Shown: positions 41,964-63,233 of the stretch, in pieces | Position numbering within the stretch: the stretch's first letter is position 1 | Layout: each line of letters begins with the position of its first letter | DNA from: Macrostomum lignano | Lineage: Eukaryota | Assembly: GCA_002269645.1 (NCBI GenBank) | Contig: NIVC01000717.1 | Location: 326,822-390,821 of the forward strand | Direction: 5' to 3' | Length of the DNA stretch: 64,000 nucleotides | Position numbers and translations under genes: made by a program | The notes under the pieces: model-generated | Told to the model about the DNA's origin: nothing | The model's database searches: none | The model's input: the letters and a program-made list of their open reading frames with translations, nothing else

Positions 41964-42150
41964 CAGGGCGCCAAAATATAGCGCCTGCTTGCGGCGCCAA
42001 AATGAGCGCTTGCCTGCGGCGCCAAAATGAGCGAATACCTGCGGCGCCAAAATGAGCGCTAACAAAACAAGTTCTTAAAATAATGTAACATTTCTTGGCT
42101 TCGTCACCCCACCCCCCTCCCCCCCAAAAAAACCGACGGTGACGCCCTTG
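41964..42150 (+). mobile_element. Truncated relative of the hAT-like MITE, with only 4 units (25-26 bp)
   Basis: GGCGCCAAAATGAGCG units, then AATAATGT..TTCTTGGCTT..CCCC..GTGACGCCCTTG as at 1950-2041. Confidence 0.55.
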
Positions 42151-42154
42151 CGAT

Positions 42155-42424
42155 TCAGAGAATGTCAGAGTGACAGAGAATGTGAGAGCGAGGAATATGA
42201 AAGTGAGTGAGAATGTGAGAGTGAGTGAGAATGTGAGAGTAAGTGAGAATGTGAGAGTGAGTGAGAATGTGAGAGTGAGTGAGAATGTGAGAGTAAGTGA
42301 GAATGTGAGAGTGAGTGAGAATGTGAGAGTGAGTGAGAATGTGAGAGCGAGGAATATGAGAGTGAGTGAGAATGTGAGAGCGAGGAATATGAGAGTGAGT
42401 AAGAATGTGAGAGCGAGGAATATG
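42155..42424. repeat. 18/27-bp minisatellite, left part (interrupted by the LTR element)
   Basis: GAGAGTGAGTGAGAATGT and GAGAGCGAGGAATAT units. Confidence 0.93.
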
Positions 42425-43337
42425 TGTAGAGAGTTATTAGACCATACCGTAATGCTCTACTTAAAGTAATATTCTAAGGAAGTCAATTTCTTTCAAAATG
42501 AGTCATATCTATTTTAGGAATCACGCGCAAACAGAATGATTTAGAACCCTACATTGTTTGATCAAGGAACCGGATTTCAACAGCTGTATTTGTTTAACTC
42601 CATATATGGTAATGCTCAAACATGCATGACCGCTTAATCAAACATTTTTGACCTAAGTAAATACCCAATCCCAAACCGGTTTTTCTCCAAAATTTTGCTA
42701 TAAATATAAGTGAAAATTCAAGTCAAAAATTCAGACTCGGAGCGGTCTCTAAGAAGACACCGAAGAAATAAGAAGACCAATCTCTGAGGGACCATCCCTG
42801 TCCAATTGGTAAGCGTTTACCCGATTTAGTTAATTGTTAATAGCGCTAATAAAGTGATTGATTGAGTATACGAGAGCAGTTCATTGTCGATACATTTGAG
42901 AAAGGCCTCCTTGTTTCCTAGGATATTCCTAGAGGATTTATTGATTTAATTGAGTTATCCGTTACGTTTCGGACGTAACGAAGAAGCCGCCCTTCAGGAG
43001 GACCTATCACAGAAAATTAGAGAATTCAATTGTTCATTAGGGCGCAAGTTCTATTGTGAATTCCGAGCTCGAGGACCGTTAAGAAGTTCTGATTCGCTCT
43101 CGTTTGGTCGACCCACAGATAAAGGACACCAAAGAAAAACAGTGGTTCACCGGAACCGGTCGCCGTAACCGCTCAGCAAGCTTGCTATCCCGACGCGCCA
43201 CAGAACTCCACCGGCTGCCGACCCCAAGAGGATCCGCTGAAGTAAGTTATTTGAACTGATAAATACCTAGGCACTTGTTCCCCCGTGTCTAGAAGTGGGA
43301 GTTTTTGAGTGACTGATCACCACTCTTAAACTCTTCA
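42425..43337 (+). repeat. 5' LTR (913 bp)
   Basis: TGTAGA...CTTCA; TATAAATA at 42699, AATAAA at 42848; differs from the 3' LTR by 2 substitutions and one 5-nt indel on manual comparison. Confidence 0.97.
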
Positions 43338-43339
43338 AC

Positions 43340-43356
43340 TGGTGATCTCGCCCAGG
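43340..43356 (+). promoter_or_regulatory. Primer-binding site (tRNA not assigned)
   Basis: TGGTGATCTCGCCCAGG starts 2 nt after the 5' LTR. Confidence 0.75.
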
Positions 43357-43703
43357 CTCAAGCGCTACCAGGCTAGATCGCTGAAAGTACTTTGACACAA
43401 GTCCTTTGCGCAAATTTTTCTGAACTTTTTACCGAACCGCCATTGTTTGCATAGAGACCCTTTGATTCTTCGTGCACCGTTTTATACTTTTGTTAAATTT
43501 GCGAATATCCTATCTCAATTTCTTTCTTTGGTAAAGGCAACACAGAATTTTTTTTGCCCCCGTGTCCATTTTCCTTTCTTCCTTTAAGTAAATAAGAGCT
43601 TGCACACACACACAACACTTGTTCGCCACTTTGAAAGTCCAATCTGGAAAATCCTTTGGAAATTGATCCAGATCTGGTCCTCTTGCCGTTCCCATTTGAA
43701 AAT

Positions 43704-44600
43704 ATGGCTCGAAGAAACCCTACAGTGCATCGCGATGTCAAGGAAACTGTTGGAATGTATACCATGGATAAAGATTTTAACACCTTCATTGAACACTTCG
43801 ACCTTGTAACTCGCGAATACGGACTACAAAATCCAGAAAAGGCACTTCTTCTTCCTCCACTGTTAGAAGGTACTGCTCGAGAAATTTATGGCAAACTAAA
43901 TGCCGCCGCACAGCAAGACTATCATACTTTAGTTACACAACTGAGAGCACAATTCGCCAGATGTGGAACCAATCGATCTGTGCTTCTACACAAACTTCAT
44001 AATCGAAAAATGAGTCCGACGGAATCCTTCCTTACTTTCGTCGATGACGTCCGCAAAATTATTAAAGCGTTGCACCAGCCACCACCACCGAACCCAGGAG
44101 CTCAGCCTATCGGACCAGCAGAACTAGCTGCACGAGAAAGACAACGCCTTGCTGACCAAGAACAAAGCCTAATCCTCCATGTCATTAATAATGCTCAACC
44201 TTCGCTGCGAGACAGGTTGTTAAGAGAAACCATTGAGACAGAGGAACAATTAATTCGTTGCGGCATGCAATGGGAAGCAAGTGCCCCACTCCTGACTTCT
44301 CGTAGTAGTGATACGACACAATTGGGAGAACAATTGAGCAAACTCATGCAGCAGTACCAAACTTCTGCAATCATGCCACAGCGACAGAGATACGCTCCGC
44401 CACCCACTTGTTACACCTGTGGAAGAATTGGTCATTACGCCAGAGACTGCCGATCACGTGGCAATCCAAGACAATATAATGACAACAGAAGAAAAAATTG
44501 GACTCGTCCTCAAAATCGCAATTGGAACCCACCACAGAATAGACAAGGAAATGCCTTGGTACCTTATCGACAACAAAGAAATCCTCCTCCTCCAAGACAG
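43704..44600 (+). CDS. gag: Gag region: capsid-like domain and CCHC nucleocapsid knuckle
   Basis: FIEHFDLV..LLEGTAREIYGKL..LRAQF capsid pattern; CYTCGRIGHYARDC at 44409-44450; basic R/N/Q-rich tail. Confidence 0.9.
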
Positions 44601-47600
44601 CCTACTCAGGTCCGCAGACAATATGCTCAAGCTATTGAACCGGAATACACTCAAGTCATCGAACCAGAGTTTAAGATAGAGGATCTTATGCCGGATTTCA
44701 CAATCAATGTCCTTGAGGAGTTTGAAAGACGAAAAGATAGCACAAGCAGCGAAAGTAGCTGCATGATGGATTCTCTGTTTGAAGAAGATCCACCCATTCC
44801 TACCTCTTCTAAAGCAAGTCCAGTCTTCCGAGAAAACAAAAGACAACAACAAACTATTTCTAAGCAACAAAGCAATCTATTTAAAGTTCCGACGATCGAC
44901 AATCTTTCGGAAACTCACCGAGATGACAATTTCCAGGATCGTAAAGAAATGACAACACTTGAAGAAGACAGAGATCCAGCAACTTCTCAAAACATCTTTG
45001 AAGAAAGCGTTGACATGTTGCAGGTCCTAGTCGACGATATAGACCTGTCAGAAACACCTCCAACACAGGAACCAGACTATGAAAATATTGTCTCCCCTAG
45101 TCCAGTCCACGAAAAATGGAAACATGACAAGGCCACGAACACACAATCTAACCATTCGACAGATGAAAAGTTCGTACAGACGGAGGATGACACATATGTT
45201 TCAATGAACCTAGACTATGAAAGCGAATATGATGAACCGATAACAATAATGGAACCGGTTAACACTCCAACTGATGAGAATACAACTACACATCTTACCA
45301 ATATATCAAAATCAACCAACTTTATGCGTCCGATGTTGCAATCGCAGCCACCCACACCATTACCATGTTCCAACAAATGGCACTTTTCGACTCGCCTTAC
45401 TCCTCCGCCGTATCCTGAAGATAGTCATGACGAGATTGAAGACACTCCACCAGTACCAACAAGACGAAAGAAAAAACATCCGCTACTGCAATGCTTCCTC
45501 ACGATCTTGATGATGGCAATTGTTCCCACGGTACTGCCGTCTCCATCTCCAATGATCTGTCCCACTGATGGAGACATCCAGCCAGTCATTTACAAGATTC
45601 CTACGGAAATCAAATGCAGTTACTTTAAGACAAACCAAACCAAGCCACTACCACTAACTATTGAAATATACAAAGCAAATACAAAGAAGCATCGACAAAT
45701 GGGAATTGTGTGCTTCCGAGACAAGGATGAAATTGAAAAGGTTTGGCTGGTACAATGGAACCGAATCAGGTATTGGCAAACTTCGATGATGGTATCACAA
45801 GAAGAATGCTTTCGGTGGAATCAAACTCTGTTTTCCGAAGATGGTCAATTAAAACTTCATGAGACGTCCGCCAGCGGAGCACAGCTATTTCGCACAAAAA
45901 ATGTAGCCGATGGAAGATATGTCCATTATCATCAATCACGATGGCCTACATACTCAGTCTACAATAGCTACCTCATCCGAAATGTTTTATTCTACCACAA
46001 TCCATTTGACAACATGGAATCCTTACAGCTACCACTCGACCAGTGTCACTACAGCTCTGGATATTGTTCTACCCCTAACTACAACAAAGAAGAAGCTCAA
46101 AATTTACCCCTAGCACCGACTTATTTCCACGACTATCGATACCAAATTGAATACAGATCGGATTCCCGCTATGAGGAGCCTAGCCGAACCCGCAAATATT
46201 TCATTGCATGGGAAGTTAAAACTGAAATTGACTGCAAGCTACAAAAATATCACACTGTTAAAGGAAAATTGCTATCTAACACCTTCCTTGCCGACTCAGG
46301 AGATCTCGCTCTTACATTTCCTAAGCAACCAAGCTACACACACTTGAAATGTAAAGACAAGGACGAGCAACTAATCCTCTCCGACCAAGAAATACCAATC
46401 GTGCTTAAGGATATGGATAAGAATGTGTTCCTGAAAGTAGTAAATGGAACCTATCAGAGAAAAGATGTCATAGAACGACATAAGCGAGACCTACCTAAGC
46501 CTTCTCTAGTATCAGCACGACTTCTGGCAGCAAAACTAGCCGCCATGGAACATAAGCTACATAAGCAACTGAACTATCTGCATCGATCCATGGTCAAACT
46601 AACGTGCCGAATGCACGAAACCAGCCTGAATTACGCAAGACAGAACTATTATGTCAATCCCACGACGACCTTTAGGAAAATCACAGGTATTGAAGATGTC
46701 TTGGCAATTCCAGTTTACGGATATTTGCTAATCTATAAATGTACACCGATCCACCACTTTAACATCTTGCCATCAAATACTACAACAACCTGTTACGACA
46801 AACCTCGAATCGAGGCCTTTTACAAGGGAAGGCGCATCCGAGGATTTTTGGACACTGTCCACAATATTATTGTTGGAACCGCCATTCCAAGACCATGTAC
46901 AAACTCAGCCAACTATTTCAACTTAAACGATCTACTACACCAAATTTCGTCGGCAGGCGATATTAAAAACATTTCAAACTCGCAAGTTATTGTTGACGAG
47001 ACTTACGAAATGACGGACCTCGAAGTAAAATTCAATAAAACAACATACAAACCCTTTGGAGATATTAAACTAGACGAAATCACCCCAGGATGGACTATCA
47101 ACGATTTCCTGCAGGTTTTTATTTCACAACGGCAAGTCCTGACAAAACTGTTCACGGAACGACAGCAACGAGATGCAGATCGACTTACATCTCCAATAGG
47201 AATGACTATGCACAATGCCATTCAATCGTTTTGGTCAAATAGCTTTCTGGACCTAATACAAGGACGAGGAAGTCTATACCAAGGTTTTCTTTTCTCCAGT
47301 GCTTGCATTGTATGGATCTACTTAGTGCTACTCATTCTTGTCACAGTAGTCCGATGCGCAGCAAGAAATTGTCCACAAACTCGAGGCATCTTTCAAATAA
47401 TCAAACAAACAGACACTACCACTACAGGAGAAGAACCAACCGAAGAGACACCTATGCAAGTTCAAGAAATTCGACCAGAACCTACAGCACCAGAAACCTC
47501 AAACATTTATCCAAAAATCGATTTCAAGCCAGCAATTCCTCCGCCAATGTCACCTCCACTACCAATCGACCCAAAATGGCCAGCCAACTACGTCTGTACT

Positions 47601-50600
47601 CTCCAAGCCAATATGGGAAGAGCAATGGCTCAAGTACTTGTCAACAACAGGCCCAGCAAAGCACTGCTTGATTCTGGAAGCTCCATCACTGTCATTACTA
47701 AGAGACTATATGACAAACTACAACTTCGAATGCGACCATCATCCATCGCTGTTGCTGGAGCAGGTGGACATGCGCTTAATATCCTTGGACAAGTTGGGAT
47801 TATGCTCAAACTGGCAAATAAACAACTCCCTGTTCAAGCATTTGTTATCGACCACCTTCCAAGTCAAGATGTTATCATTGGAATCGACACATTCCAAAAA
47901 CTGAATTTACCCTTGACATTTGATTTTAACAAACAGACATTCAAACTAGACAACGTAGAACACCCATTGGTCAGCCAAGTTCATTTACAACCTAAAGTTC
48001 ATCTCCGACAAGATGTATTCATACAGCCTGAAAGCACTTGTTGGGTTAAGGCTTATCTAGTAAATAACGAAGACGTCGAAGAAGCTATGATTTTCGAACC
48101 AAGAAAGAAACTACTAACAACAAAGGAAGTTCTAATTCCAACGGCATTGGTCCTGATCACATCAGAAAAAGTTATTCCGGTACAGATTGTCAACCCTCAC
48201 CAACATCCCGTTAAGATCTACGCAGGAACATGCATGGGACACCTCAACACACAAGCCTCCGTCATGCTGATTCAACATACAAAAACAACAAGGATGTCAA
48301 AGCAACAATTCTTACAACAAATTGATCTCTCGCAAAGTCCCATTACGGAAGGACAAAAAACACAGGTCAGAGATCTACTTTGGAAGTACAATGACGTCTT
48401 TTGTCATCATGATTACGACATTGGTCGCGCTCGCGACATCAAGCAGAAAATCGAACTGCTACCCCACCAGGAACCCATCCAATGCAAACCATACCCAGTA
48501 GCAAAACATCTGCAACAACATTTTGATGAAATCATCGAAAAAATGCTCAAGGCCGGAATCATCAAACGAACAGTCTCAGCATATTCATCACCGTGTCTAC
48601 TAGTTGAAAAAAAGGAAACAAATGAAAGACGACTTGTCTGTGACTTTCGAGTCCTAAATAAATACATCCCCACAGATCAACAAAGTCTACCAAAGATTTC
48701 GGAACTATTGGCACGACTGAATACAGCTACTCTCTTCACCGTATTTGATCTACGACATGGCTTTTGGCAAATTGAACTTGAAGAAGAATCAAAACAATAT
48801 ACAGCATTCAAGACCTACAAGGGAGAAGTCTTTGCGTACCAGAGAAGCCCAATGGGGATTTCCAACTCCCCAGCGACCATGAGCCGCTTAACAGCCTACA
48901 TGCTAGCGGGATGTACGAATCTATTGCATTATGTGGACGATATTCTCGCTTTCGGCGATAATTTCGAACAACTACTGAGTGTCATGGAACAAGCTCTCTT
49001 TCTACTTCAGAAACAAGGACTAAAACTACAACCTACAAAATGTAAATTCTGCAGAGATTCAGTCCGATATCTGGGACATCATGTTTCAGCAAGAGGAATT
49101 TCACCCGACCCTAATAATGTCGAAAAGGTCAAGAAGTTCCCCAAGCCTACAACACTTACAAAACTACAATCATTCCTTGGATTAGCACAGTACTTCCGAA
49201 AATTCTTACCAAACTTCGCGCAAACTGCAAAGCCATTATATGAGTTGTTGAAGTTTCCCAAATGGAAGGAAGAAAATTGGAAAACGGAACAGCAAAACAG
49301 TTTTGATAAAATTAAACAGCAACTAACCAGCGACGCTCTGCTCAAACACCCAGACTTTCAAAAGCCGTTTATTATCGAAACCGATGCATCAGGAAGTGGT
49401 TTAGGAGCTGTACTACTTCAACAAACAGATCAGAAAAAGGAAAAACCAATTGCCTTTATCAGCCGAGCCCTGCGTCCAAATGAAACAAAATGGTCCGCCA
49501 CCGAACGTGAATTACTAGCGATTTTATTCGCTCTACGACAGTTTCATTACTACATCTACGGATCACCGCTACCAACCATCATCCGCACAGACCACGCACC
49601 GCTGACTCATGTTGTCAAAACAAAAGGACAAACGAATAACAGACTTATCCGGATGGTCCTCAAAATTCAGGACTATAACTTTCATCTCGTCTATAAACCA
49701 GGACCTACAAACAAGGCCGCGGATGCGCTATCAAGAGCATATGAAGTCAATGCTGTCCACCCCATTCCAACCATGACGGATCTACTGAAAGCGCAACAAG
49801 AAGATAATTTCTACAAAGCTGTATACGAAGACACAGAAGAAATGCAAAAACCGCTCACCAAGATCGAAAAGAAATTTTTACGGAAACAAGGCAATAATCT
49901 CATCTTCAAAGAACTAGCACTTTACTGGCTGCACAATAATACCCCAAGATTGTACCTACCATACAACTATCGCGCCGCAATCCTACATGAACTACACGAC
50001 ACACCCCTAGCCGGACATTTATCCGCCAAGAAAACAATCCACAGAATAGCCCAGTTCTATTTCTGGCCAACAATGAATGCAGACATCCGCAACTACTGCC
50101 TACAATGCCACTCATGTGCTTCAACAAAGACTGGAAGAAGACAAAAACCAGAACTTCAATCCGTACCAAAGACAACCACATGGGACATTGTATCACTTGA
50201 TATTACCGGACCACTACCGCCAGCTCGACAACATGCTATCGATTACACTTACATTCTTACCGCATTAGACGTGTTCTCTAAATTTGCTGTTGCCATTCCA
50301 CTGCCTGACATTACAGCCACTACAGTTGCAATGGCCTTCTACAATGAAATTATCTGCAAATACGGAACTCCAAAGACACTAACCTCCGACAATGGTACAC
50401 AATTTACGTCGCAACTATTCCAACAGGCGGCTAAATTACTAAATATCCAACAAATTTTCACCTCCACCTACAATCCAAAAGCTAACCTAGTAGAACGATT
50501 CCATAGAAATCTATACGAAATGTTGACACACTTCGTCTATAAGCAACCTGAAGATTGGATCATATACCTGCAGTCAGTGACAATCGCCTACAACAGTGCA

Positions 50601-51146
50601 GTACACCGTTCAACAGAGAACACACCGTTTTTCCTTATGTTCTCTCGAGACTTTCAGCCACCAAGCCTACTAGTTCAAAAACTATTACCTTCTCAGTACG
50701 TGGAAACGCCAACAACACTACAAAAGTTTACTTCGCAGCTACACCTGGCATGGCAAATCGCGAAACACAATTTAGAAAATCAACAGGCAGTAGTCACCAC
50801 CAGCAATCATACATCTACTCTACAAGTCGGAGACATCGTTTACCTACATTACCCTGCGCAACATACACATAAACACGCACTTAAATACAAAGGACCATTC
50901 CGAGTAACGGCATTGGTATCGGCAACAACGGCACGCCTCGCTAATATCCAGGATCCACATCAACCTCAGTTCTATGTTCACATTCAACGTCTAAAACGTA
51001 TCACTAACGACACTACATTCCTCCCAGACCTACAAAATCCAGACCACACAAAAACAACAAATAAACACATTGCCACTGCACACGCCGAAACACAAACAAC
51101 AAACGCACCACCTGTCGGTCATACGTACAACCTAAGACCTCGTTAA
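43704..51146 (+). CDS. gag-env-pol: Single Gag-Env-Pol polyprotein, about 2480 aa from the first ATG
   Basis: One open frame with no stop or frameshift (ORF track 43656-51146; ATG at 43704). Confidence 0.95.
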   Translation: MARRNPTVHRDVKETVGMYTMDKDFNTFIEHFDLVTREYGLQNPEKALLLPPLLEGTAREIYGKLNAAAQQDYHTLVTQLRAQFARCGTNRSVLLHKLHNRKMSPTESFLTFVDDVRKIIKALHQPPPPNPGAQPIGPAELAARERQRLADQEQSLILHVINNAQPSLRDRLLRETIETEEQLIRCGMQWEASAPLLTSRSSDTTQLGEQLSKLMQQYQTSAIMPQRQRYAPPPTCYTCGRIGHYARDCRSRGNPRQYNDNRRKNWTRPQNRNWNPPQNRQGNALVPYRQQRNPPPPRQPTQVRRQYAQAIEPEYTQVIEPEFKIEDLMPDFTINVLEEFERRKDSTSSESSCMMDSLFEEDPPIPTSSKASPVFRENKRQQQTISKQQSNLFKVPTIDNLSETHRDDNFQDRKEMTTLEEDRDPATSQNIFEESVDMLQVLVDDIDLSETPPTQEPDYENIVSPSPVHEKWKHDKATNTQSNHSTDEKFVQTEDDTYVSMNLDYESEYDEPITIMEPVNTPTDENTTTHLTNISKSTNFMRPMLQSQPPTPLPCSNKWHFSTRLTPPPYPEDSHDEIEDTPPVPTRRKKKHPLLQCFLTILMMAIVPTVLPSPSPMICPTDGDIQPVIYKIPTEIKCSYFKTNQTKPLPLTIEIYKANTKKHRQMGIVCFRDKDEIEKVWLVQWNRIRYWQTSMMVSQEECFRWNQTLFSEDGQLKLHETSASGAQLFRTKNVADGRYVHYHQSRWPTYSVYNSYLIRNVLFYHNPFDNMESLQLPLDQCHYSSGYCSTPNYNKEEAQNLPLAPTYFHDYRYQIEYRSDSRYEEPSRTRKYFIAWEVKTEIDCKLQKYHTVKGKLLSNTFLADSGDLALTFPKQPSYTHLKCKDKDEQLILSDQEIPIVLKDMDKNVFLKVVNGTYQRKDVIERHKRDLPKPSLVSARLLAAKLAAMEHKLHKQLNYLHRSMVKLTCRMHETSLNYARQNYYVNPTTTFRKITGIEDVLAIPVYGYLLIYKCTPIHHFNILPSNTTTTCYDKPRIEAFYKGRRIRGFLDTVHNIIVGTAIPRPCTNSANYFNLNDLLHQISSAGDIKNISNSQVIVDETYEMTDLEVKFNKTTYKPFGDIKLDEITPGWTINDFLQVFISQRQVLTKLFTERQQRDADRLTSPIGMTMHNAIQSFWSNSFLDLIQGRGSLYQGFLFSSACIVWIYLVLLILVTVVRCAARNCPQTRGIFQIIKQTDTTTTGEEPTEETPMQVQEIRPEPTAPETSNIYPKIDFKPAIPPPMSPPLPIDPKWPANYVCTLQANMGRAMAQVLVNNRPSKALLDSGSSITVITKRLYDKLQLRMRPSSIAVAGAGGHALNILGQVGIMLKLANKQLPVQAFVIDHLPSQDVIIGIDTFQKLNLPLTFDFNKQTFKLDNVEHPLVSQVHLQPKVHLRQDVFIQPESTCWVKAYLVNNEDVEEAMIFEPRKKLLTTKEVLIPTALVLITSEKVIPVQIVNPHQHPVKIYAGTCMGHLNTQASVMLIQHTKTTRMSKQQFLQQIDLSQSPITEGQKTQVRDLLWKYNDVFCHHDYDIGRARDIKQKIELLPHQEPIQCKPYPVAKHLQQHFDEIIEKMLKAGIIKRTVSAYSSPCLLVEKKETNERRLVCDFRVLNKYIPTDQQSLPKISELLARLNTATLFTVFDLRHGFWQIELEEESKQYTAFKTYKGEVFAYQRSPMGISNSPATMSRLTAYMLAGCTNLLHYVDDILAFGDNFEQLLSVMEQALFLLQKQGLKLQPTKCKFCRDSVRYLGHHVSARGISPDPNNVEKVKKFPKPTTLTKLQSFLGLAQYFRKFLPNFAQTAKPLYELLKFPKWKEENWKTEQQNSFDKIKQQLTSDALLKHPDFQKPFIIETDASGSGLGAVLLQQTDQKKEKPIAFISRALRPNETKWSATERELLAILFALRQFHYYIYGSPLPTIIRTDHAPLTHVVKTKGQTNNRLIRMVLKIQDYNFHLVYKPGPTNKAADALSRAYEVNAVHPIPTMTDLLKAQQEDNFYKAVYEDTEEMQKPLTKIEKKFLRKQGNNLIFKELALYWLHNNTPRLYLPYNYRAAILHELHDTPLAGHLSAKKTIHRIAQFYFWPTMNADIRNYCLQCHSCASTKTGRRQKPELQSVPKTTTWDIVSLDITGPLPPARQHAIDYTYILTALDVFSKFAVAIPLPDITATTVAMAFYNEIICKYGTPKTLTSDNGTQFTSQLFQQAAKLLNIQQIFTSTYNPKANLVERFHRNLYEMLTHFVYKQPEDWIIYLQSVTIAYNSAVHRSTENTPFFLMFSRDFQPPSLLVQKLLPSQYVETPTTLQKFTSQLHLAWQIAKHNLENQQAVVTTSNHTSTLQVGDIVYLHYPAQHTHKHALKYKGPFRVTALVSATTARLANIQDPHQPQFYVHIQRLKRITNDTTFLPDLQNPDHTKTTNKHIATAHAETQTTNAPPVGHTYNLRPR
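45480..47360 (+). CDS. env: Env-like class III fusion glycoprotein (herpes gB/chuvirus G-like) embedded in the polyprotein
   Basis: Signal-like stretch after RRKKK; 12 ectodomain Cys; 6 N-glycan sequons; RHKR furin site at 46476-46487; heptad helix; VNPTTTFRKITGIEDVLAIPVYGYLLIYKCTPI resembles the gB NP...GDV...C motif; TM at 47286-47351. Confidence 0.8.
47600..51146 (+). CDS. pol: Pol region: aspartic protease, RT, RNase H, integrase
   Basis: LLDSG at 47664; RLVCDFR, DLRHGFWQI, YVDD at 48930; ETDASG, ERELLA, TDHAPL; H-H-C-C zinc finger, LDITGP, SDNGTQF, VERFH. Confidence 0.97.
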
Positions 51147-51277
51147 ATTATTCGCTTCATGTCCCCGTGTAGTGACCGGGATAAAGAATAGCACTACAGC
51201 TTCCTCAAGCTTGTCGTAAGAGGCGACTAAATCCTTGTTTTCCTACAAACGCTCACACAACTACGACAAACACGACA

Positions 51278-51928
51278 ATGGATTGTCCTATCTGTCTCGG
51301 AGAATTTTCATGTAAACTACCTTGTATATGTGTCAATAGACACCAGGTGTGTGGTTCTTGCTTAAGCCTTGCACATTACAAAAAACCTTTAAAAAATTGC
51401 CCTATGTGTCGAGGTAATCTCCGTCAATGCATGATATGCAACTCCTGGCGCACTGAACAATATTGCTTAAATCAACATTTTATGTGCACACAATGTATTA
51501 AGAAGCTTGCTTATCGCTCCATTTGTCAGTGTCCTATATGCGATGCCACCCCTTTACCTAAAGTTAACAACAAACTTGCATGCATTCAAGCGGACTACAA
51601 CCTACAGCTTCACCCATTCACTTATGCTCTTTTTCCATCACATGCTATAATTATCCGCCTCAGATCATGGCCCATACCACGTGCTGCTCATAAAACACGT
51701 AAATACCTCGTTCGCTATTCCTCTTCCTACGGTTCTAGACTCCGGCAATTATCTCCACAAGAAATTGAACATAAGCTGTTTAAAATTGTTAACGATATGA
51801 ATTTTCACCCATGCCCCATCCTCTGTACAACTCTACCTGCACTCATTCTGCGTAATGAGGACTTGTCTTATATATTACCACCCCAAGAATCATATGACTA
51901 TAATAGTTCCGCTTCAGAAATTGATTAA
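51278..51928 (+). CDS. Accessory ORF A: tandem RING-HC fingers and an unknown C-terminal domain (216 aa)
   Basis: C-x2-C-x11-C-x3-H-x2-C-x2-C-x12-C-x2-C, followed immediately by CMIC..CLNQHFMCTQC..CPIC. Confidence 0.8.
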   Translation: MDCPICLGEFSCKLPCICVNRHQVCGSCLSLAHYKKPLKNCPMCRGNLRQCMICNSWRTEQYCLNQHFMCTQCIKKLAYRSICQCPICDATPLPKVNNKLACIQADYNLQLHPFTYALFPSHAIIIRLRSWPIPRAAHKTRKYLVRYSSSYGSRLRQLSPQEIEHKLFKIVNDMNFHPCPILCTTLPALILRNEDLSYILPPQESYDYNSSASEID

Positions 51929-52001
51929 AATACCATGCACCCACAGATATTGCAACCATTCTTGCACAGATATTACTTATCACATTGACCATTTTTCAGA
52001 C

Positions 52002-52601
52002 ATGGATAGCGACGAGTGCATTGTTTGTTATGAAGACACTGAACAGTATGTCTACTGTCAGCATGGGCATAAGTTCTGCTATAACTGCTGCACAACGGAT
52101 AGAATAGACAAATGCCCGCTATGCCGCGCACCACCTACCCTGTGCCAGGTATGCAATACAACACCGCAACAAAGGATGTGCGCCAACGGACACTGGGTCT
52201 GCCGAGATTGTGCTCTAAAAATTCGGTGCCGCGACTATAAGCATTGCATAACTTGTGCAGCGCCAATATCTAAGGAAATTTACGCCGGAACAACAACATT
52301 ACCAAAGATCCAACTTACAAAGGAGACCATGGACAGTATGACGGCCAAGGAACTAGCAACAGCTATACGAACCTGGCCAATACCATTCAACAAGAGAGAC
52401 CATTTGGAATATCTTTTTGACTTGGTACGTCAATATGCGGCGCATCCAATAAATACTACGAGTACAACTGAAGAGATCTACCTGGAATTCCTCAACGCCA
52501 CCGAATCAACACAATTTACGCCGATACAGCACTTACTGTGGCCACTCGCGAGATTGACAACCAAAGTAAACGATATACTGAATAATACGCTTTCCTATTA
52601 A
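52002..52601 (+). CDS. Accessory ORF B: paralogous tandem RING-HC protein (199 aa from ATG 52002)
   Basis: CIVC..CQHGHKFCYNC..CPLC, then CQVC..CANGHWVCRDC..CITC; shares R-x-WPIP with ORF A. Confidence 0.8.
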   Translation: MDSDECIVCYEDTEQYVYCQHGHKFCYNCCTTDRIDKCPLCRAPPTLCQVCNTTPQQRMCANGHWVCRDCALKIRCRDYKHCITCAAPISKEIYAGTTTLPKIQLTKETMDSMTAKELATAIRTWPIPFNKRDHLEYLFDLVRQYAAHPINTTSTTEEIYLEFLNATESTQFTPIQHLLWPLARLTTKVNDILNNTLSY

Positions 52602-52780
52602 CAATAACAATGCATCCTGCCAAGCAACACAATAACAATGTGACCTACCTATCTACCTATCCATCTACTATACTACTACTGGTTCAAAATTTCTAATCCT
52701 TAAATACATTTTCATGTTTATTAGAAGATAAAACCCCACTTCACCGCTTTAACTTTAAAATTCGGGACGAATTTTTCGTG

Positions 52781-52791
52781 AAAAGGGGAGA
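52781..52791 (+). promoter_or_regulatory. Polypurine tract
   Basis: AAAAGGGGAGA, 3 nt before the 3' LTR. Confidence 0.9.
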
Positions 52792-52794
52792 TAT

Positions 52795-53712
52795 TGTAGA
52801 GAGTTATTAGACCATACCGTAATGCTCTACTTAAAGTAATATTCTAAGGAAGTCAATTTCTTTCAAAATGAGTCATATCTATTTTAGGAATCACGCGCAA
52901 ACAGAATGATTTAGAACCCTACATTGTTTGATCAAGGAACCGGATTTCAACAGCTGTATTTGTTTAACTCCATATATGGTAATGCTCAAACATGCATGAC
53001 CGCTTAATCAAACATTTTTGACCTAAGTAAATACCCAATCCCAAACCGGTTTTTCTCCAAAATTTTGCTATAAATATAAGTGAAAATTCAAGTCAAAAAT
53101 TCAGACTCGGAGCGGTCTCTAAGAAGACACCGAAGAAATAAGAAGACCAATCTCTGAGGGACCATCCCTGTCCAATTGGTAAGCGTTTACCCGATTTACT
53201 TAATTGTTAATAGCGCTAATAAAGTGATTGATTGAGTATACGAGAGCAGTTCATTGTCGATACATTTGAGAAAGGCCTCCTTGTTTCCTAGGATATTCCT
53301 AGAGGATTTATTGATTTAATTGAGTTATCCGTTACGTTTCGGACGTAACGAAGAAGCCGCCCTTCAGGAGGACCTATCACAGAAAATTAGAGAATTCAAT
53401 TGTTCATTAGGGCGCACGTTCTATTGTGAATTCCGAGCTCGAGGACCGTTAAGAAGTTCTGATTCGCTCTCGTTTGGTCGACCCACAGATAAAGTTAAGG
53501 ACACCAAAGAAAAACAGTGGTTCACCGGAACCGGTCGCCGTAACCGCTCAGCAAGCTTGCTATCCCGACGCGCCACAGAACTCCACCGGCTGCCGACCCC
53601 AAGAGGATCCGCTGAAGTAAGTTATTTGAACTGATAAATACCTAGGCACTTGTTCCCCCGTGTCTAGAAGTGGGAGTTTTTGAGTGACTGATCACCACTC
53701 TTAAACTCTTCA
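52795..53712 (+). repeat. 3' LTR (918 bp)
   Basis: Near-identical to 42425-43337 plus a 5-nt insertion near 53494. Confidence 0.97.
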
Positions 53713-54925
53713 TATGAGAGTGAGTGAGAATGTGAGAGCGAGGAATATGAGAGTGAGTGAGAATGTGAGAGTGAGTGAGAATGTGAGAGTGAGTGAGAAT
53801 GTGAGAGTGAGTGAGAATGTGAGAGTGAGTGAGAATGTGAGAGTGAGTGAGAATGTGAGAGTGAGTGAGAATGTGAGAGCGAGGAATATGAGAGTGAGTG
53901 AGAATGTGAGAGTGAGTGAGAATGTGAGAGTGAGTGAGAATGTGAGAGCGAGGAATATGAGAGTGAGTGAGAATGTGAGAGTGAGTGAGAATGTGAGAGC
54001 GAGGAATATGAGAGTGAGTGAGAATGTCAGAGTGAGTGAGAATGTGAGAGCGAGGAATATGAGAGTGAGTGAGAATGTGAGAGCGAGGAATATGAGAGTG
54101 AGTGAGAATGTCAGAGTGACAGAGAATGTGAGAGCGAGGAATATGAGAGTGAGTGCGAATGTGAGAGTGAGTGAGAATGTGAGAGTGAGTGAGAATGTGA
54201 GAGTGAGTGAGAATGTGAGAGTGAGTGAGAATGTGAGAGTGAGTGAGAATGTGAGAGTGAGTGAGAATGTGAGAGTAAGAATGTGAGTGAGTAAGAATGT
54301 GAGTGAGTAAGAATGTGAGTGAGTGAGAATGTGAGTGAGTAAGAATGTGAGTGAGTAAGAATGTGAGAGTAAGAATGTGAGTGAGTAAGAATGTGAGAGT
54401 AAGAATGTGAGTGAGTAAGAATGTGAGTGAGTAAGAATGTGAGAGTATGAATGTGAGTGAGTAAGAATGTGAGTGAGTAAGAATGTGAGTGAGTAAGAAT
54501 GTGAGTGAGTAAGAATGTGAGTGAGTAAGAATGTGAGTGAGTAAGAATGTGAGTGAGTAAGAATGTGAGTAAGAATGTGAGTGAGTAAGAATGTGAGTGA
54601 GTAAGAATGTGAGTAAGAATGTGAGTGAGTAAGAATGTGAGAGTAAGAATGTGAGTGAGTAAGAATGTGAGCGAGTAAGAATGTGAGAGTAAGAATGTGA
54701 GTGGGTAAGAATGTGAGCGAGTAAGAATGTGAGTGAGTAAGAATGTGAGTGAGTAAGAATGTGAGTGAGTAAGAATGTGAGAGTAAGAATGTGAGTTAGT
54801 AAGAATGTGAGTGAGTAAGAATGTGAGTGAGTAAGAATGTGAGAGTGAGTAAGAATGTGAGTGAGTGAGAATGTGAATGAAATGCGAGGGTGACAGGATG
54901 TGAGAGCGACAGAGAATGTGAGACT
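53713..54925. repeat. Continuation of the 18/27-bp minisatellite, grading into 14-18-bp GTAAGAATGTGAGTGA units
   Basis: Same units as 42155-42424. Confidence 0.93.
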
Positions 54926-55644
54926 TGTTGGCCAATTTGCTGCAGAGGATCCAATATCGCACAATCCCAGCAACTAACATGTATAAGGTGTGCGTGATGC
55001 TGGCCTAGCGGACGAGTTCAAGGAGATATCCGGGAAGCGGCAGATGGCCGCACAGCTTAACACACCCGGGTATTAATTGTGCGCCAAAACGTGAAATGCA
55101 TGGCAATTGGCATTACTCGAATTGTCATCTTTAAAGGATATTCATAACTATGATCCGCATATATAGATTTTGTTATTCGAATAAATATAGGTTCCCCACA
55201 AAACAATGACTATAAAATCGCTTTCTCACGCACAAGTCCATAATGATAACAAAGATATTTTTAAATGATCAGATCAATAATTCCATAATAATCTACTATG
55301 GCAAACAGTTCGGATTCAGAATTTGCATAGTCATATGTCTAGCTTGAATAAATCACAGATGGTTGTTAGTTGTTGCAGTTTACGGATCTATACGGATCTA
55401 TCTTACGGCAATATGCTTATTATATAATAAGCATATTGCCACCATAAAGTTAAGAAATACCGGTATATGTATTAACATTAGCAGCTATAGTTGCAGAGTC
55501 GAATTACGTTGCATTGCAGTTAAAGTTCTGTACGCACAAGCACTGTAGGTTAATTACAGTCTGTAAAAGGTGCGACACTTCAAGACTGAAGATCCAAGCA
55601 GTGTTTAAGGGCCAACAATACTTAAATAATATCAGGCTAGGATG

Positions 55645-57823: not shown

Positions 57824-60800
57824 TCAGTGCTGCTTATTCTTCAATAGCTGTTTCAATCTTTGATGCTCCCTAGGCTCCAGAAAGCCGACTAGCACCCTAT
57901 CCATCACACGGATCGGGTGCTTCCGATAGCCGAATACTCGAACCCAATCAGACGGCACGTGTCTCACAGGTGGATTATTCTGTATCCGCTTGCTCCGCCT
58001 CACAGCCGCAGTAGCATTAGTGGCATTCGACAGTTCACTAGCCGACGCTAGACGATATTCGTCAACTTCGCTAGTTAACAATTTTACTTGTCTAAGCGTT
58101 GACATATCGAATTCCGTTAGGCCTTGCTCGACTGTGAAAAAATTGAAGCAATCCAACGGTAGCAGATTTGGCAACAGACTGACGCGCTCTACTTTGGCTT
58201 CTTTAGTAAGAAAATCGTGCGGATCGTAAAAGTATGAAGTTGCACTGAACTCGTTAGCGCTCTCTAGATCTTCAAAATTATCAAAAACTGCCGCCTTGTT
58301 TAGACTAGACAAGTCAGACTGAGTCTGGGTGTCCGCGTCGCTGCAGCTTAGAGCTTCCGTTGCTTGGTTGACAGATTGAATTTCCTGTCGAGATTCTGCA
58401 ACATCTTCAACTTGATGCTCTTGAAGTGTCCGTACTTCATCTGGTTCATGTTGATCGTAAACTAACGGCGACGGAGCTGGAACTGACACCCGTCTGGAAA
58501 CTACTTTATCCAGTTGATGTTCGTCTTCATCAACATCCAAAATCGGAGATGGAGGCGCAACAGATCGAATATATAACTGTCTAACGGATGACTGATCCAT
58601 AGTTTCCTCCGGTGCCACTGTATGAAAGATGTTGGACTCGTGCCAAGACGATAAATATTGACAACGCATAGCGGTATCGTCCACAGTGAATTCGGTTTCA
58701 GTCAGATAAGACTTAGCGACGGTGAGACTGGTACCTGTCGCTCTTGCTCTCTGACGCTGACGAACAATCGATGGCAACAATTCGCGTCTAATAGAACTAT
58801 TGTCAATGGTAGCCTGCGACACTGTCGCGTACATATTCGACGCGTGTACAGAGTCAATGTATTGTCGACGAATGCTAGAATCATTGACAGTTACTAGGCA
58901 CTCGGTTGCGTAGAGATTAGACGATTGCAAATCTGGTTGCGATTGGCTTTTGTAACTTGACACACCGTCGCACTGGATACCTTCCTCGACAAGCTCCACT
59001 GACCGTGGATTAGATGAACTAATAATCGAACGAGGAACCATTGCAACTTTGTGAGGATCCGAGGACGCGGAAGCGTACCCAGTGGTGGTCGCACTGTCGC
59101 AAGACGTTGCTACGGGCAAAGTTGACACCACCGCTACAGCTGGCTGACAACGCATCGGACTCAACGAATGCTGAGACACCGAATGGACAACAGAACAAGT
59201 GCTAGAACCGGCTTCAACAACATTAGCAAAATTCACAGCTTGACTACTTCTGACCTGTGCAGCATTGTTGATTTTAGCAGGAGAAGACGTTCGACAATCT
59301 TCTAGCTTCACACCTGCAGGCTGATCAGTGATAAATTGAGTTGCAGTTACTGCAGTTTTTCCCTCGGCAACCAAATCAGCTTTAAAATTTTGACTGTCAA
59401 TTCCAGTTTGACTGTGCAGTGCTTCAGTGTTTGACTGTTGAATAATGGTGAACTCCGGCTGCATACATGGCAAGGTTTTATCATCGAGTCCAGACGATGT
59501 AACGAATGAAGATTTAGCGCGTTTAATCTTATCGCGATTGCTGGACTGGGATATCCTTGATGTGGAGTCACTGGATTGATAATCTGGTTTCTGAAGTAGC
59601 TTATCAATTACAGATGAAGAACTTTGCTGCCAAATCGATTCAGCATGTTGTGACGCTGCTGAGCCTAGAGACTTTACGCGATGGATGCTGCGGCCAAGAG
59701 AACAACCTACTTCAAGATTTTCAACCCTGGAATTTTTTAGCTGAAGCGTTTCAGAGGCCGAATTCCTGCGCAAAAGACTACGTCTGATAGAATTGGCAGG
59801 TTGCAGGCTCAGTCGAGTCGAGTCACTGATTTGCGATGTTTCGGGTTGCTGGCTCAGTTCGATTGCATCGAGATTCTGCGATCTGTCATGCGTACGACTT
59901 TTCAGATGACGACTTCCACAGCCAAGCTGAGATTCGTTCGAATTATGACTTTTATTAGTCATCTCAAGCCTTTCGGGTTGCAGACTCTGTTAGTGAGTTG
60001 CTGTGTTGAGATCTCACCGGTAGCAGACTCGGTTGGCTTGACACACTAAGCTGAGATCTCTTTGGTTGCAGACTCGGTCGTCCTGACTCATTAAGCTGAG
60101 ATCTCTCTGGTTGCAGATTCGGTCGGTTTGACTCACCAAGATGAGATATCTCTGGTTGCAGACTCGGTCGGTTTGACTCATTAAGCTGAGATCTCTCTGG
60201 TTGCAGACTCGGTCGGTTTGACTCACTAAGCTGAGATCTCACCGGTAGCAGACTCGGTCGTCCTGACTCACTAAGCTGAGATCTGTCTGGTTGCAGACTC
60301 GGTCGGTTTGACTCATTAAGCTGAGATCTCTCTGGTTGCAGACTCGGTCGTCCTGACTCACTAATCTGAGATCTCTCTGGCTGCAGACCCGGCCGTTGTG
60401 AGTCACCCATTTGAGAACGCTCCTGTTTCAGACTCAGTCGCTTTGAGTCTTCGAGCTGAGATCTGTTCGGTTGCAGATTCAGTCGATTTGAGTCTCCAAG
60501 CTGAGATCTGTCTGGTTGCAGACTCAGCTGAATTGAATCACCAAGCTGAGATGCCTCTGGTTGTAGACTCAGTTGAATTGAGTCGCAAAACTGAGATCTG
60601 TCTGGTTGCAGACCCGGCCGTTGTGAGTCACACATTTGAGAACTCTCCTGTTTAAGACTTAGTCGGTTTGAGTCTTTATGCTGAGATCTCTCTGGTTGCA
60701 GACTCGATCGTCTTGACTCACTAAGTTGAGTTTCTTCTGGTTGCAGACTCAGTCGGTTAGAATCTTCGTGCTGAGATCTGTCACGTTGCAGACTCGGCCG

Positions 60801-63233
60801 TTGTGAGTAGCTTATCTGAGATCTCTCTGGTTGCTGACTTGGTCGTCTTGACTCACTAAGCTGAGATCTGTCTGGTTGCAGACTCGGTCGCGTTTGAGTC
60901 TCCGAGCTGTGAACTGTCTGGTTGCAGACTTAGTCGGTTTGAGTCTCCGAGCTGTGAACTGTCTGGTTGCAGACTTAGTCGGTTTGAGTCTCCGAGCTGT
61001 AAACTGCCTGGTTGCGGACTCGGTCGGTTTGAGTCTCCAAGCTGAGATTTCTCTGGTTGTAGACTCAGATGAATTGAATCACCAAGCTGAGATCTGTCTG
61101 GTTGCAGACTCGATCGTCTTGACTCACTAAGCTGAGATTTCTCTGGTTTTAGACTCAGTTGACTTGCATCGCATATCCGAGATCTCTCTTGGTGTAGACT
61201 CGGTCGCGACTTGCTGGATAGCTGAGACGCAACCGTTGAAGCTGGACTTCATCATCGCAGAGCTCAGAAGTGGCACAAGCAAGACTGACGGCGACATTAG
61301 CTCGACTAGGTGTGCTTGCCTGTAGACGCAGTTTTATCAGTACACTCGCCAGCTACTACTACTGATTCACCAGTAGTAGTAGACGATTTTGAATCATCCG
61401 ACGTTAAATCGCTGTCATTGCTACTGGATTGACTAAATGAATCATCTTGGCTGACATAAATACTGACGCCTAGAGCATCAGCTGAGTTAGTCGACAAACC
61501 AGAGTAGTGAGCACTGCTATAGGACCTAACCGAACTGCTTTTTGTTTAACGACTGAGGCGCTTTCTACATTGGCTTGCGAATCAGACAGAGAAACGGCTC
61601 TCGGTTACAACTCTGACTAGTTGAAGACGCAATTAACTCCTCTATCGACTGTCCATCGGCAAACTTTCGGTTTTGAGACTTCTGAGAAGTTGACAGATCA
61701 GTGAGATTTTTTACTACAGACGATGAACTAAGCTGCTCTTTACAGCTAACACTTTTATTCGTCGATTCCACAGACTGATTAGTCAAGCCCCGATCAGCTG
61801 ACCGACAGCTGTTGCGAATAAGCAACTTTTCAATAGGCTATTCCTTGCTGCAGCAGTTTTCTACTGCGTTCTCTGCTGCGATCGAACAGCAGAGCTGCGG
61901 CTGCCACCCTGGGCCGAGCTGATGGAGCCAGATGGCAATAATTGCGCGCGGCTCAAGCGATTTATCGATGCTAGCTGACAGATTTAGACTGGCTATAGCG
62001 GATAATGCCATCGATGGTTGCTTTTGAATGCATCCGCTTTGATTGTTGAATCTATTTGCAGCTAGCAGCATCATCTGGCTGGTGAATATCATCAGACATG
62101 CTGACACATTCGCTTACACCGCTACTCTGCATAGCTATTGAATCTAACAATAGCGTCGCTTTACTTTTGCCGTCCAATCGTTTTTTAGTTCGTTGTCCAC
62201 TTCTAGAGTGTCTAGCATCGGGTTCGGCGTCTGCTTGGGACTTAGAGAGGCTAGGAGGTTGCTATTCCTTTCATGACTCTTATTAGTCTTAGTTGTCCAC
62301 TCGTTGGCAACGATTAATTTCTCAGCCGGCCTGGCGCGATCCCGACTGCGACCTCGTTGGTAAACCATAGTGGACATTGCCAAAATTTCCATACGCCGTT
62401 GCTTCACTGTCGCAAGCAATCGAAGATAAACTAAGATTTGGCGGAGCTCGATTAATCTGACTTTCCGTGGAGCCTACAGCTGTAGAGACAGTGGTCGCAG
62501 ACGAGGCTACCAACGTTTAGCAGATTTTGATTTGTTAACGACAGTAGGGGACTGCTTGACATCAGCTGCGGCTGCTACCCTTTCATTCTCTTTATCATCT
62601 GTCCCAGCGGTAGCATTGCTACTGTCTGCAAAGCTTACAGAAGATATTTTACGACGGTGACGACGCTTAACAACTCGGACAGCATTCTGCTTGGTGCAGC
62701 AGCAGCAGCAGCAGAAGGTCGAGAAGTGATGGCGGGGCTACGCAGTAAGGAACTGCTTAAAGTCGGACAGTTAACCGTACTGTTTGGAGAATCAGTCAAG
62801 CCTGTCTGACCGCGTCTTTTAGATTGCCTTTTGTTCCGCCAAGGGATTCTACATGGCTAACAGCAAGAGTGCTATCTAAAGCTTCTACTAAATGAGCCTG
62901 CTGGTCCTGTTGCTGCGACTGTTGTTGGTTTACTTGAGGACAAATCTGCTTCTGAATGACAGCTACAGAGCTCAGAGCCAGTGTTGTTTCTGGTGATAAA
63001 TCAATTCGACTAAGTCGCATCTGTTGCCTATTAGCCTTGCTAACTCTGCCATTTTGCTGCGAGGTTGCCGTTTGACTTTCTGAGCCCGACTGGCGCATCG
63101 GGTTTTCATGTCTGGTTTTTGGCGACCAATTTAATTGGCTGGCTGTAAATTGTTGTTTTTTAATTTCAGTTAAAACTGTATAAGGGCCAATTTTTAGAAA
63201 AGCATGAAACCTAGATGTGTTGTTAAATAACAA
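57824..63233 (-). pseudogene. Decayed long Ser-rich ORF of unknown function; the 3' 712 codons (57824-59962) are still open
   Basis: Consecutive Ser-rich ORF fragments; in-frame stops at 62144, 61838, 61306; frameshifts near 60892 and 59990 are visible against the 45-bp repeat register. Confidence 0.55.
59980..61230 (-). repeat. 45-bp coding-like tandem repeat (SQLSESNRPSLQPER)n
   Basis: CAGCTTAGTGAGTCAAACCGACCGAGTCTGCAACCAGAGAGATCT-type units on the - strand. Confidence 0.9.

Follow-up and report, generated by a model that had tools for sequence, protein, structure and literature searches.

RESULTS

The 64-kb stretch of Macrostomum lignano DNA analyzed here (the window) contains what appears to be an intact, recently inserted, errantivirus-like Ty3/gypsy LTR element at positions 42425 to 53712, and all features given below are on its forward strand unless stated otherwise. 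The hallmarks of the Ty3/gypsy group (Metaviridae) are present. The 5' LTR (42425 to 43337; 913 nt, TG...CA) and the 3' LTR (52795 to 53712; 918 nt) share 911 identities with 2 mismatches and one 5-nt gap, the target site duplication (TSD) TATG flanks the element, a polypurine tract lies just before the 3' LTR, and a primer binding site (PBS; TGGTGATCTCGCCC) lies at 43340 to 43353. The same PBS is found in a sister family, in which the LTR is about 860 to 870 nt long and Env is 64 to 66% identical to that of the window. Each LTR contains a 310-nt GT-AG intron (42809 to 43118, with a second copy at 53179 to 53488). The element sits inside a GA-rich satellite that is seen on both sides of the insertion (42140 to 42424 and 53713 to 55000). 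The window is rich in other tandem arrays as well, such as the 21-mers at 1 to 2100, and two long, adjoining open frames of 721 and 321 aa, for which Pfam gave no convincing match, occupy 57824 to 60929 on the reverse strand.

Between the LTRs, a frame of 2503 codons is open from 43635, and its first ATG, at 43704, begins a single Gag-Env-Pol reading frame of 2480 aa (43704 to 51146); the leader upstream of 43704 has no earlier ATG. The Gag side (43704 to 45461) consists of a core, a CCHC knuckle (44409 to 44450; Pfam zf-CCHC, E = 3.8e-6), an acidic linker, and a PPPY motif (45402 to 45413) that is neither enriched nor conserved among relatives. Next come an internal signal sequence or signal-anchor (45462 to 45539), with a basic n-region, a hydrophobic core, and a Pro-rich c-region, then a predicted gB-type (class III) fusogen ectodomain (45540 to 47285), a single transmembrane (TM) helix assigned by hydropathy as a stop-transfer segment (47286 to 47351), and a predicted cytosolic Env tail, or protease spacer, of 84 aa (47352 to 47603). 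By Pfam, pol has the order protease (PR), reverse transcriptase (RT), RNase H (RH), and integrase (IN): an aspartic PR (47631 to 47915; LLDSGS at 47664; E = 4e-9), RT and RH (48606 to 49676; YVDD at 48930), and IN (49959 to 50900) with a zinc finger, a core, and a GPF motif. The best solved relative of the RT was Ty3 RT (E = 2e-67), followed by those of foamy virus (3e-41) and MLV (4e-36), in what is a ranking by similarity without BEL/Pao references rather than a tree. The nearest named proteins are from Macrostomum lignano itself, at 65% identity.

Two accessory reading frames lie between pol and the 3' LTR, and both have counterparts in the sister family. ORF A (51278 to 51928) encodes a Cys-rich, tandem RING-like protein of 216 aa, and ORF B (52002 to 52601) encodes its RING-type paralogue of 199 aa (Pfam zf-C3HC4_3, E = 4.8e-7; 24% identity to ORF A, E = 4e-13). 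A pyrimidine-rich AG occurs directly 5' of the ORF B ATG. A word search found no sequence relative of ORF B, and matches from an Atlas search, at 0.86 or below, serve only as leads. RING is nowhere mentioned in the available portion of PMC5408684.

The original prediction held that membrane topology lets one polyprotein keep Gag and Pol cytosolic and Env luminal, and every motif that it named is in place, in one open frame, in the translation of 43635 to 51146. RRKKK (45462 to 45476) precedes the hydrophobic core CFLTILMMAIV (45492 to 45524), RCAAR (47352 to 47366) follows the TM helix, and a furin-type RHKR site (46476 to 46487) and six sequons (NQT at 45633, NQT at 45819, NGT at 46443, NTT at 46776, NIS at 46968, and NKT at 47034) lie between them. 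The signal core and the TM helix are the two strongest hydrophobic segments in the whole 2503-codon frame when scored in windows of 11, 15, and 19 residues. The signal, the TM helix, and the furin site exceed chance; the sequons do not. That all six sequons fall between signal and TM helix is correct as to location but is circular as evidence for topology, because it follows from how the segment was drawn. Six sequons occur in the 582 aa of the ectodomain and as many in the 586 aa of the Gag side (about 1.0 per 100 aa in both), shuffled ectodomains averaged 4.1 (P = 0.2), and 14 polyproteins pooled had 68 where 58 were expected. Sequon enrichment was rejected as support for a luminal ectodomain, since the density is the same as in Gag. 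The positive-inside rule, to which the prediction also appealed, found partial backing at the TM helix, where the C-terminal side was the more positive one in only 13 of 21 proteins.

What backs the topology is conservation in relatives of about 25% identity, together with the gB-type fold and the late-domain motifs past the TM helix described below. An Env search returned 71 proteins, mostly 22 to 30% identical, of which 27 were scanned for domains, and signals and TM helices were called by hydropathy and the (-3,-1) rule in place of SignalP/TMHMM-type predictors. Among the 27 scanned, four distant complete proteins (P0006, P0009, P0016, and P0052) have Env-PR-RT-RH-IN within one chain. Thirty-six proteins, the query and 2 close relatives included, have at least 150 aa of in-frame sequence upstream of Env. 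A hydrophobic 11-mer lies no more than 45 aa before the start of the ectodomain in 34 of the 36, compared to 6 of 375 background upstream windows, and the n-region is net positive in 32. A (-3,-1) site follows the signal in 32 of the 36 as well, compared to 39% of random windows and 16 of 35 TM helices. Moreover, exactly one segment of TM strength was found from the ectodomain to PR in 18 of 21 proteins, and the remaining 3 had no segment above threshold. With two membrane crossings, Pol would therefore be back in the cytosol. We consider it very probable on these comparisons that Gag is cytosolic, the ectodomain luminal, and Pol cytosolic.

The ectodomain has a recognizable fold. A model of its 582 aa, built from a 58-sequence alignment, had a pLDDT of 78.9, and Foldseek matched it to herpesvirus gB (E = 1.7e-20) and, as the best viral match, to nyavirus G (E = 2.5e-25), with low global TM-scores of 0.2 to 0.4. 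The model predicts a gB-type class III fusogen. Env dN/dS was 0.05 to 0.16 relative to two genomic copies (L031 and L011), close to the values for PR and for the Gag core (0.06 relative to L031), and the linker, signal, and tail evolve faster than these three regions. By these ratios, Env is under purifying selection. If env were a neutral passenger or an assembly chimera, the topology would be accidental, and the Pfam fusion-family match does fall under the curated cutoff (19.4 versus 27 bits). That reading is refuted by the Env dN/dS and by copies in long open frames: 11 of the genome's 77 env matches fall in frames of 2461 to 2538 aa, and frames of 2859 to 2866 aa occur at 4 places in a third family. 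Many independent copies, the coherent class III fold, and published relatives also stand against it, and we give it almost no credence.

The furin-type site has a conserved place in the fold. RHKR lies in a low-confidence loop directly N terminal to a long central helix, the position at which gB proteins carry their furin site. An R-x-K/R-R motif occurs in the ectodomain of all 15 proteins that have upstream sequence, ectodomain, and PR, but the count is 10 of 16 when the test is anchored to the central helix, compared to a background of 4%. The furin cut of gB-type proteins falls in a linker between domains, so that the earlier proposal that furin matures Env keeps its conserved site, but the event would not be a class I, SU/TM-style maturation. 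We think it quite likely that furin nicks the ectodomain linker. The third family has a Thr/Ser/Pro-rich, mucin-like insert of 200 aa just N terminal of its furin site (P0006, residues about 990 to 1190).

The Env tail is enriched for late-domain motifs. The window tail carries PTAP (47481 to 47492) and IYPKI (47505 to 47519), the sister family has LYPSI and PTAP, and the third family has PSAP and LYPTL. Tails were compared in 34 proteins, after those with a TM score of <1.6 or a tail of <40 aa were dropped, and were grouped into 27 clusters by linkage at 40% identity. P[TS]AP was found in the TM-PR spacer of 7 of the 27 clusters when 0.32 was expected, a number reached in 0 of 2000 shuffles; without the query, which had itself prompted the test, it was found in 6 of 26. 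YPx[LI] was found in 6 of 27 tail clusters (1.15 expected), and PPxY was weakly enriched (3 of 27; 0.77 expected, P = 0.03). Anagram controls of P[TS]AP had 0 matches in 10 of 11 cases, the overlapping [TS]APP having 5. There were 0 such late motifs in 9738 aa of pol regions, and general YxxPhi sorting motifs were not enriched in the tails (14 versus 14.4 expected). All three motifs are absent from 16 of the 27 clusters, and L031, a 94%-identical copy, has PNAP instead of PTAP. The enrichment in Env tails is a new observation made here. Because late-domain motifs are enriched past the TM helix, the spacer is likely cytosolic, a point that is independent of hydropathy. PTAP and YPXL bind TSG101 and ALIX, as described for retroviral Gag (PMC8952333). 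We lean slightly toward the view that P[TS]AP and YPx[LI] in the tail recruit ESCRT (TSG101 and ALIX) for budding.

Cleavage at the signal would not release Gag in the manner first proposed. Signal peptidase was said to free Gag, but it cuts on the luminal side; therefore, such a cut would release Env, and the signal would go on holding Gag to the membrane by its C terminus until Gag is cut again. The capsid of flaviviruses likewise keeps its C-terminal signal, as anchor C, until a second cut (PMC7601889). The signal of the window family lacks a canonical (-3,-1) site, and both sister families have good ones (ATA in L033 to L039 and VTS in L011). We judge it moderately likely that signal peptidase separates Env from membrane-anchored Gag, with a cut that is probably slow in the window family. 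Farther downstream, it is highly likely that the element's own PR cuts Pol from the tail near a conserved PKWPxNYVC block.

Perhaps, within the same topology, the first hydrophobic segment of the window family is cut very slowly or not at all and acts as a signal-anchor that tethers Gag to Env. The tether would last until the element PR or signal-peptide peptidase cut it, and it would couple capsid to envelope at budding, for which flavivirus C-prM provides a precedent (PMC7601889). Four proteins (P0001, P0006, P0038, and P0068) have no proline-free (-3,-1) site, and L031 and five derivative copies share the Pro-rich c-region without change. The (-3,-1) rule from which this reading starts is, however, a crude proxy for signal-peptidase sites, and the good sites of the sister families, like those in 32 of 36 proteins, indicate that cleavage is the norm. 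We regard a lasting signal-anchor as unlikely, although it deserves serious weight. A side observation concerns the same junction: 1 of 74 proteins, P0010, has the sequence DVESNPGP at residues 200 to 207, immediately before its Env signal. We take this sequence to be a 2A-like StopGo motif by its consensus, and as such, it appears to mark the Gag/signal junction as a processing point.

How one frame is expressed bears on the model. The LTR intron contains the only AATAAA of the LTR (42848). Its spliced joint was present in contigs of 3 runs from 3 studies, whose status as RNA is a guess, and had a depth of 0 in X17. The intron was also precisely lost from the LTRs of related genomic copies (L021 to L023). 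RNA that skips env had been named as a check on the prediction, and no env-skipping GT-AG joint was seen in 15 of 19 joints, all from contigs of guessed RNA status, a result that weakens splicing without closing the question. Joints of deletions in the coding region were rejected as splice products, as they end in microhomology and exist as DNA copies; two read runs (X5 and X9) are dominated by such deletion derivatives. Programmed -1 frameshifting as a means of lowering Pol output was rejected: four in-frame slippery heptamers precede PR in the window, and none is kept across families. Synthesis of Gag, Env, and Pol from full-length RNA would be 1:1:1, as follows from the frame, which need not mean equal products.

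Alternatively, the working mRNAs might be subgenomic, with env spliced out for Gag-Pol or with Gag alone, Env made from a separate transcript, and the fused frame seldom read through. The element does splice its LTR intron, U5 has a second donor-like GTAAGT at 43242, the two 3' RING frames need some subgenomic route, and the single-ORF elements copia and BARE1 splice for Gag excess (PMC3735527). Against this stand the joints themselves, as no coding-region GT-AG joint was among the 15 of 19 and the coding joints matched genomic microhomology deletions. In addition, a hand count in the two closest families put the end of Env just upstream of PR at 75 of 75 PR-bearing places, with no env-less gag-pol copy, although only 119 of 1060 candidates were scored and the count favors env-bearing copies. 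There is no stop past the Env tail, the 15 aa that precede the signal core include no Met in 29 of 36 proteins, and continuity of the frame holds across families of about 25% identity. We consider subgenomic expression rather improbable and the single polyprotein the better account.

Defective copies of the element have multiplied. One derivative (L015 to L020) arose by a microhomology deletion (46514/50931) and has a 1031-aa open frame consisting of Gag, the signal, Env up to a point shortly beyond the furin site, and the end of IN. It is present at five insertions, each of which has a TSD and flank of its own and LTRs that are 99.8 to 100% identical (L020 repeats the flank of L019), and it dominates the contigs of X5 and X9. 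Other deletions (L024 to L027) have the junction 44495/52555 in 3 copies and 44084/50654 in 1, and the LTR pairs, comparable in 3 of these 4 copies, were identical in all 3. The near-identical LTR pairs and separate TSDs of these derivatives point to recent mobilization in trans. In each of two groups in the sister family (L043 to L046 plus L048, 5 copies, and L049 to L054, 6 copies), the copies have in common the loss of one base in the TM-PR spacer, at several different flanks. The losses end the frame 14 to 17 or 29 codons past the TM helix, and what remains is a Gag-Env frame whose tail is short. Of 5 such copies checked, 4 have an open pol frame downstream, and the frame-ended copies contain no slippery heptamers.

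Such copies might serve the element. With the topology as proposed, defective copies that multiply while retaining Gag and some or all of Env could act in trans as the source of a surplus of Gag or Gag-Env over Pol. In favor are the in-frame Gag-signal-half-Env derivative, with its five insertions and its dominance in X5 and X9, and the two sister-family groups with shared frame-ending losses after the TM helix. Parasitic, nonautonomous copies suffice as an explanation, however, with no need for a helper role, and chance alone gives an in-frame junction one time in three. Moreover, copies this young do not allow a test for selection, the shared indels might be assembly errors, and the frame-ended copies lose the tail motifs. 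We consider supply in trans improbable.

DISCUSSION

The architecture itself is already known. "Ancient errantiviruses" with the order GAG-ENV-POL and a herpes simplex virus/gB-type Env are described in Platyhelminthes, Nematoda, and Bryozoa (Chary and Hayashi, PMC13524379), and the window element appears to be a new member of that published class. The likeness includes a Ty3/gypsy pol, a gB-type Env between gag and pol, and an ectodomain flanked by a signal and a TM helix. Platyhelminthes_Rhabditophora_Mlig_errantivirus_2 of that paper has a PBS identical to the first 12 nt of that of the window element. Compared by PBS and LTR length, its LTR of about 864 nt fits the sister family and not the window family. 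The portion of PMC13524379 available to us is silent on late domains and on how the polyprotein is placed in the membrane and processed. The statement that such expression is not typical of reverse-transcribing elements was overstated, as single-ORF gag-pol is common, in Copia and in most plant elements, where splicing or degradation provides the excess of Gag (PMC3735527). Atlas virus, too, has one polyprotein that includes Env (PMC9094657), and elements with the order GAG-ENV-POL are already in print (PMC13524379).

Other systems share parts of the design. The nematode non-canonical ERVs of Sacco et al. 2022 reportedly have a continuous gag-env-pro-pol frame and a nyamivirus-like Env. They belong to another host phylum, and the best viral fold match of the window Env is a nyavirus glycoprotein. 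The same work (J Gen Virol, doi 10.1099/jgv.0.001739) is cited in PMC13524379 for a nematode metavirus with Env before pol. Atlas virus (Belpaoviridae) encodes one stop-free Gag-Pol-Env polyprotein of 2828 aa, but its Env is class II, phlebovirus-like, and C terminal, so that no part of the chain has to come back into the cytosol once Env is made, unlike in the window element (PMC9094657). Nor does the window element read as a member of the Belpaoviridae, as that source describes them: its Env is internal, and its RT has YVDD versus YVDN in a nematode RT (PMC9094657). The order of flavivirus C-prM-E-NS is closer, with a capsid that ends in an internal signal, a luminal glycoprotein, cytosolic enzymes, and possibly a poor signal-peptidase site, although there is no homology, and flaviviruses are RNA viruses with a class II fusogen and a serine protease (PMC7601889).

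In retroviruses, late domains are carried by Gag, and in HIV, p6 lies just upstream of the protease. The elements compared here have the same motifs (PTAP, YPXL, and PPXY in retroviruses) clustered in a Pro-rich spacer that is also just upstream of the protease, but here, they are past the Env TM helix and should stay on the Env tail (PMC8952333). In the literature found, no account was given of topology or of Env-tail late domains in GAG-ENV-POL elements, and Sacco et al. 2022 may hold one.

We conclude that the observations as a whole are likely best explained by one GAG-ENV-POL polyprotein with Env threaded through the membrane by an internal signal and a TM helix. Sequence and conservation show the frame, both hydrophobic segments, the predicted fold, and selection on Env. 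Full-length RNA would be translated into one polyprotein, beginning with Gag in the cytosol. Translocation would then start at the internal signal that follows RRKKK and send the gB-type ectodomain into the ER lumen. Finally, the single TM helix would stop transfer, and the Env tail and PR-RT-RH-IN would be made in the cytosol.

Perhaps GAG-ENV-POL elements represent a separate design of enveloped reverse-transcribing virus. We suggest tentatively that the Env signal also serves as the membrane anchor of Gag, in place of a matrix domain, that the Env TM helix, rather than a Gag-Pol fusion, keeps Pol where budding takes place, and that the ESCRT late domains are on the Env tail. If so, capsid, fusogen, enzymes, and scission signals would all reach one patch of membrane as parts of a single polyprotein, with no recoding. 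The GAG-ENV-POL order has been known, but its workings are not explained in the literature found, and the conserved pair of signal and TM helix offers an answer that can be tested. If real, the late domains of the Env tail would be an unusual division of labor in a retrovirus-like agent. Ultimately, they would suggest that these elements of flatworms, nematodes, and bryozoans bud as enveloped particles.
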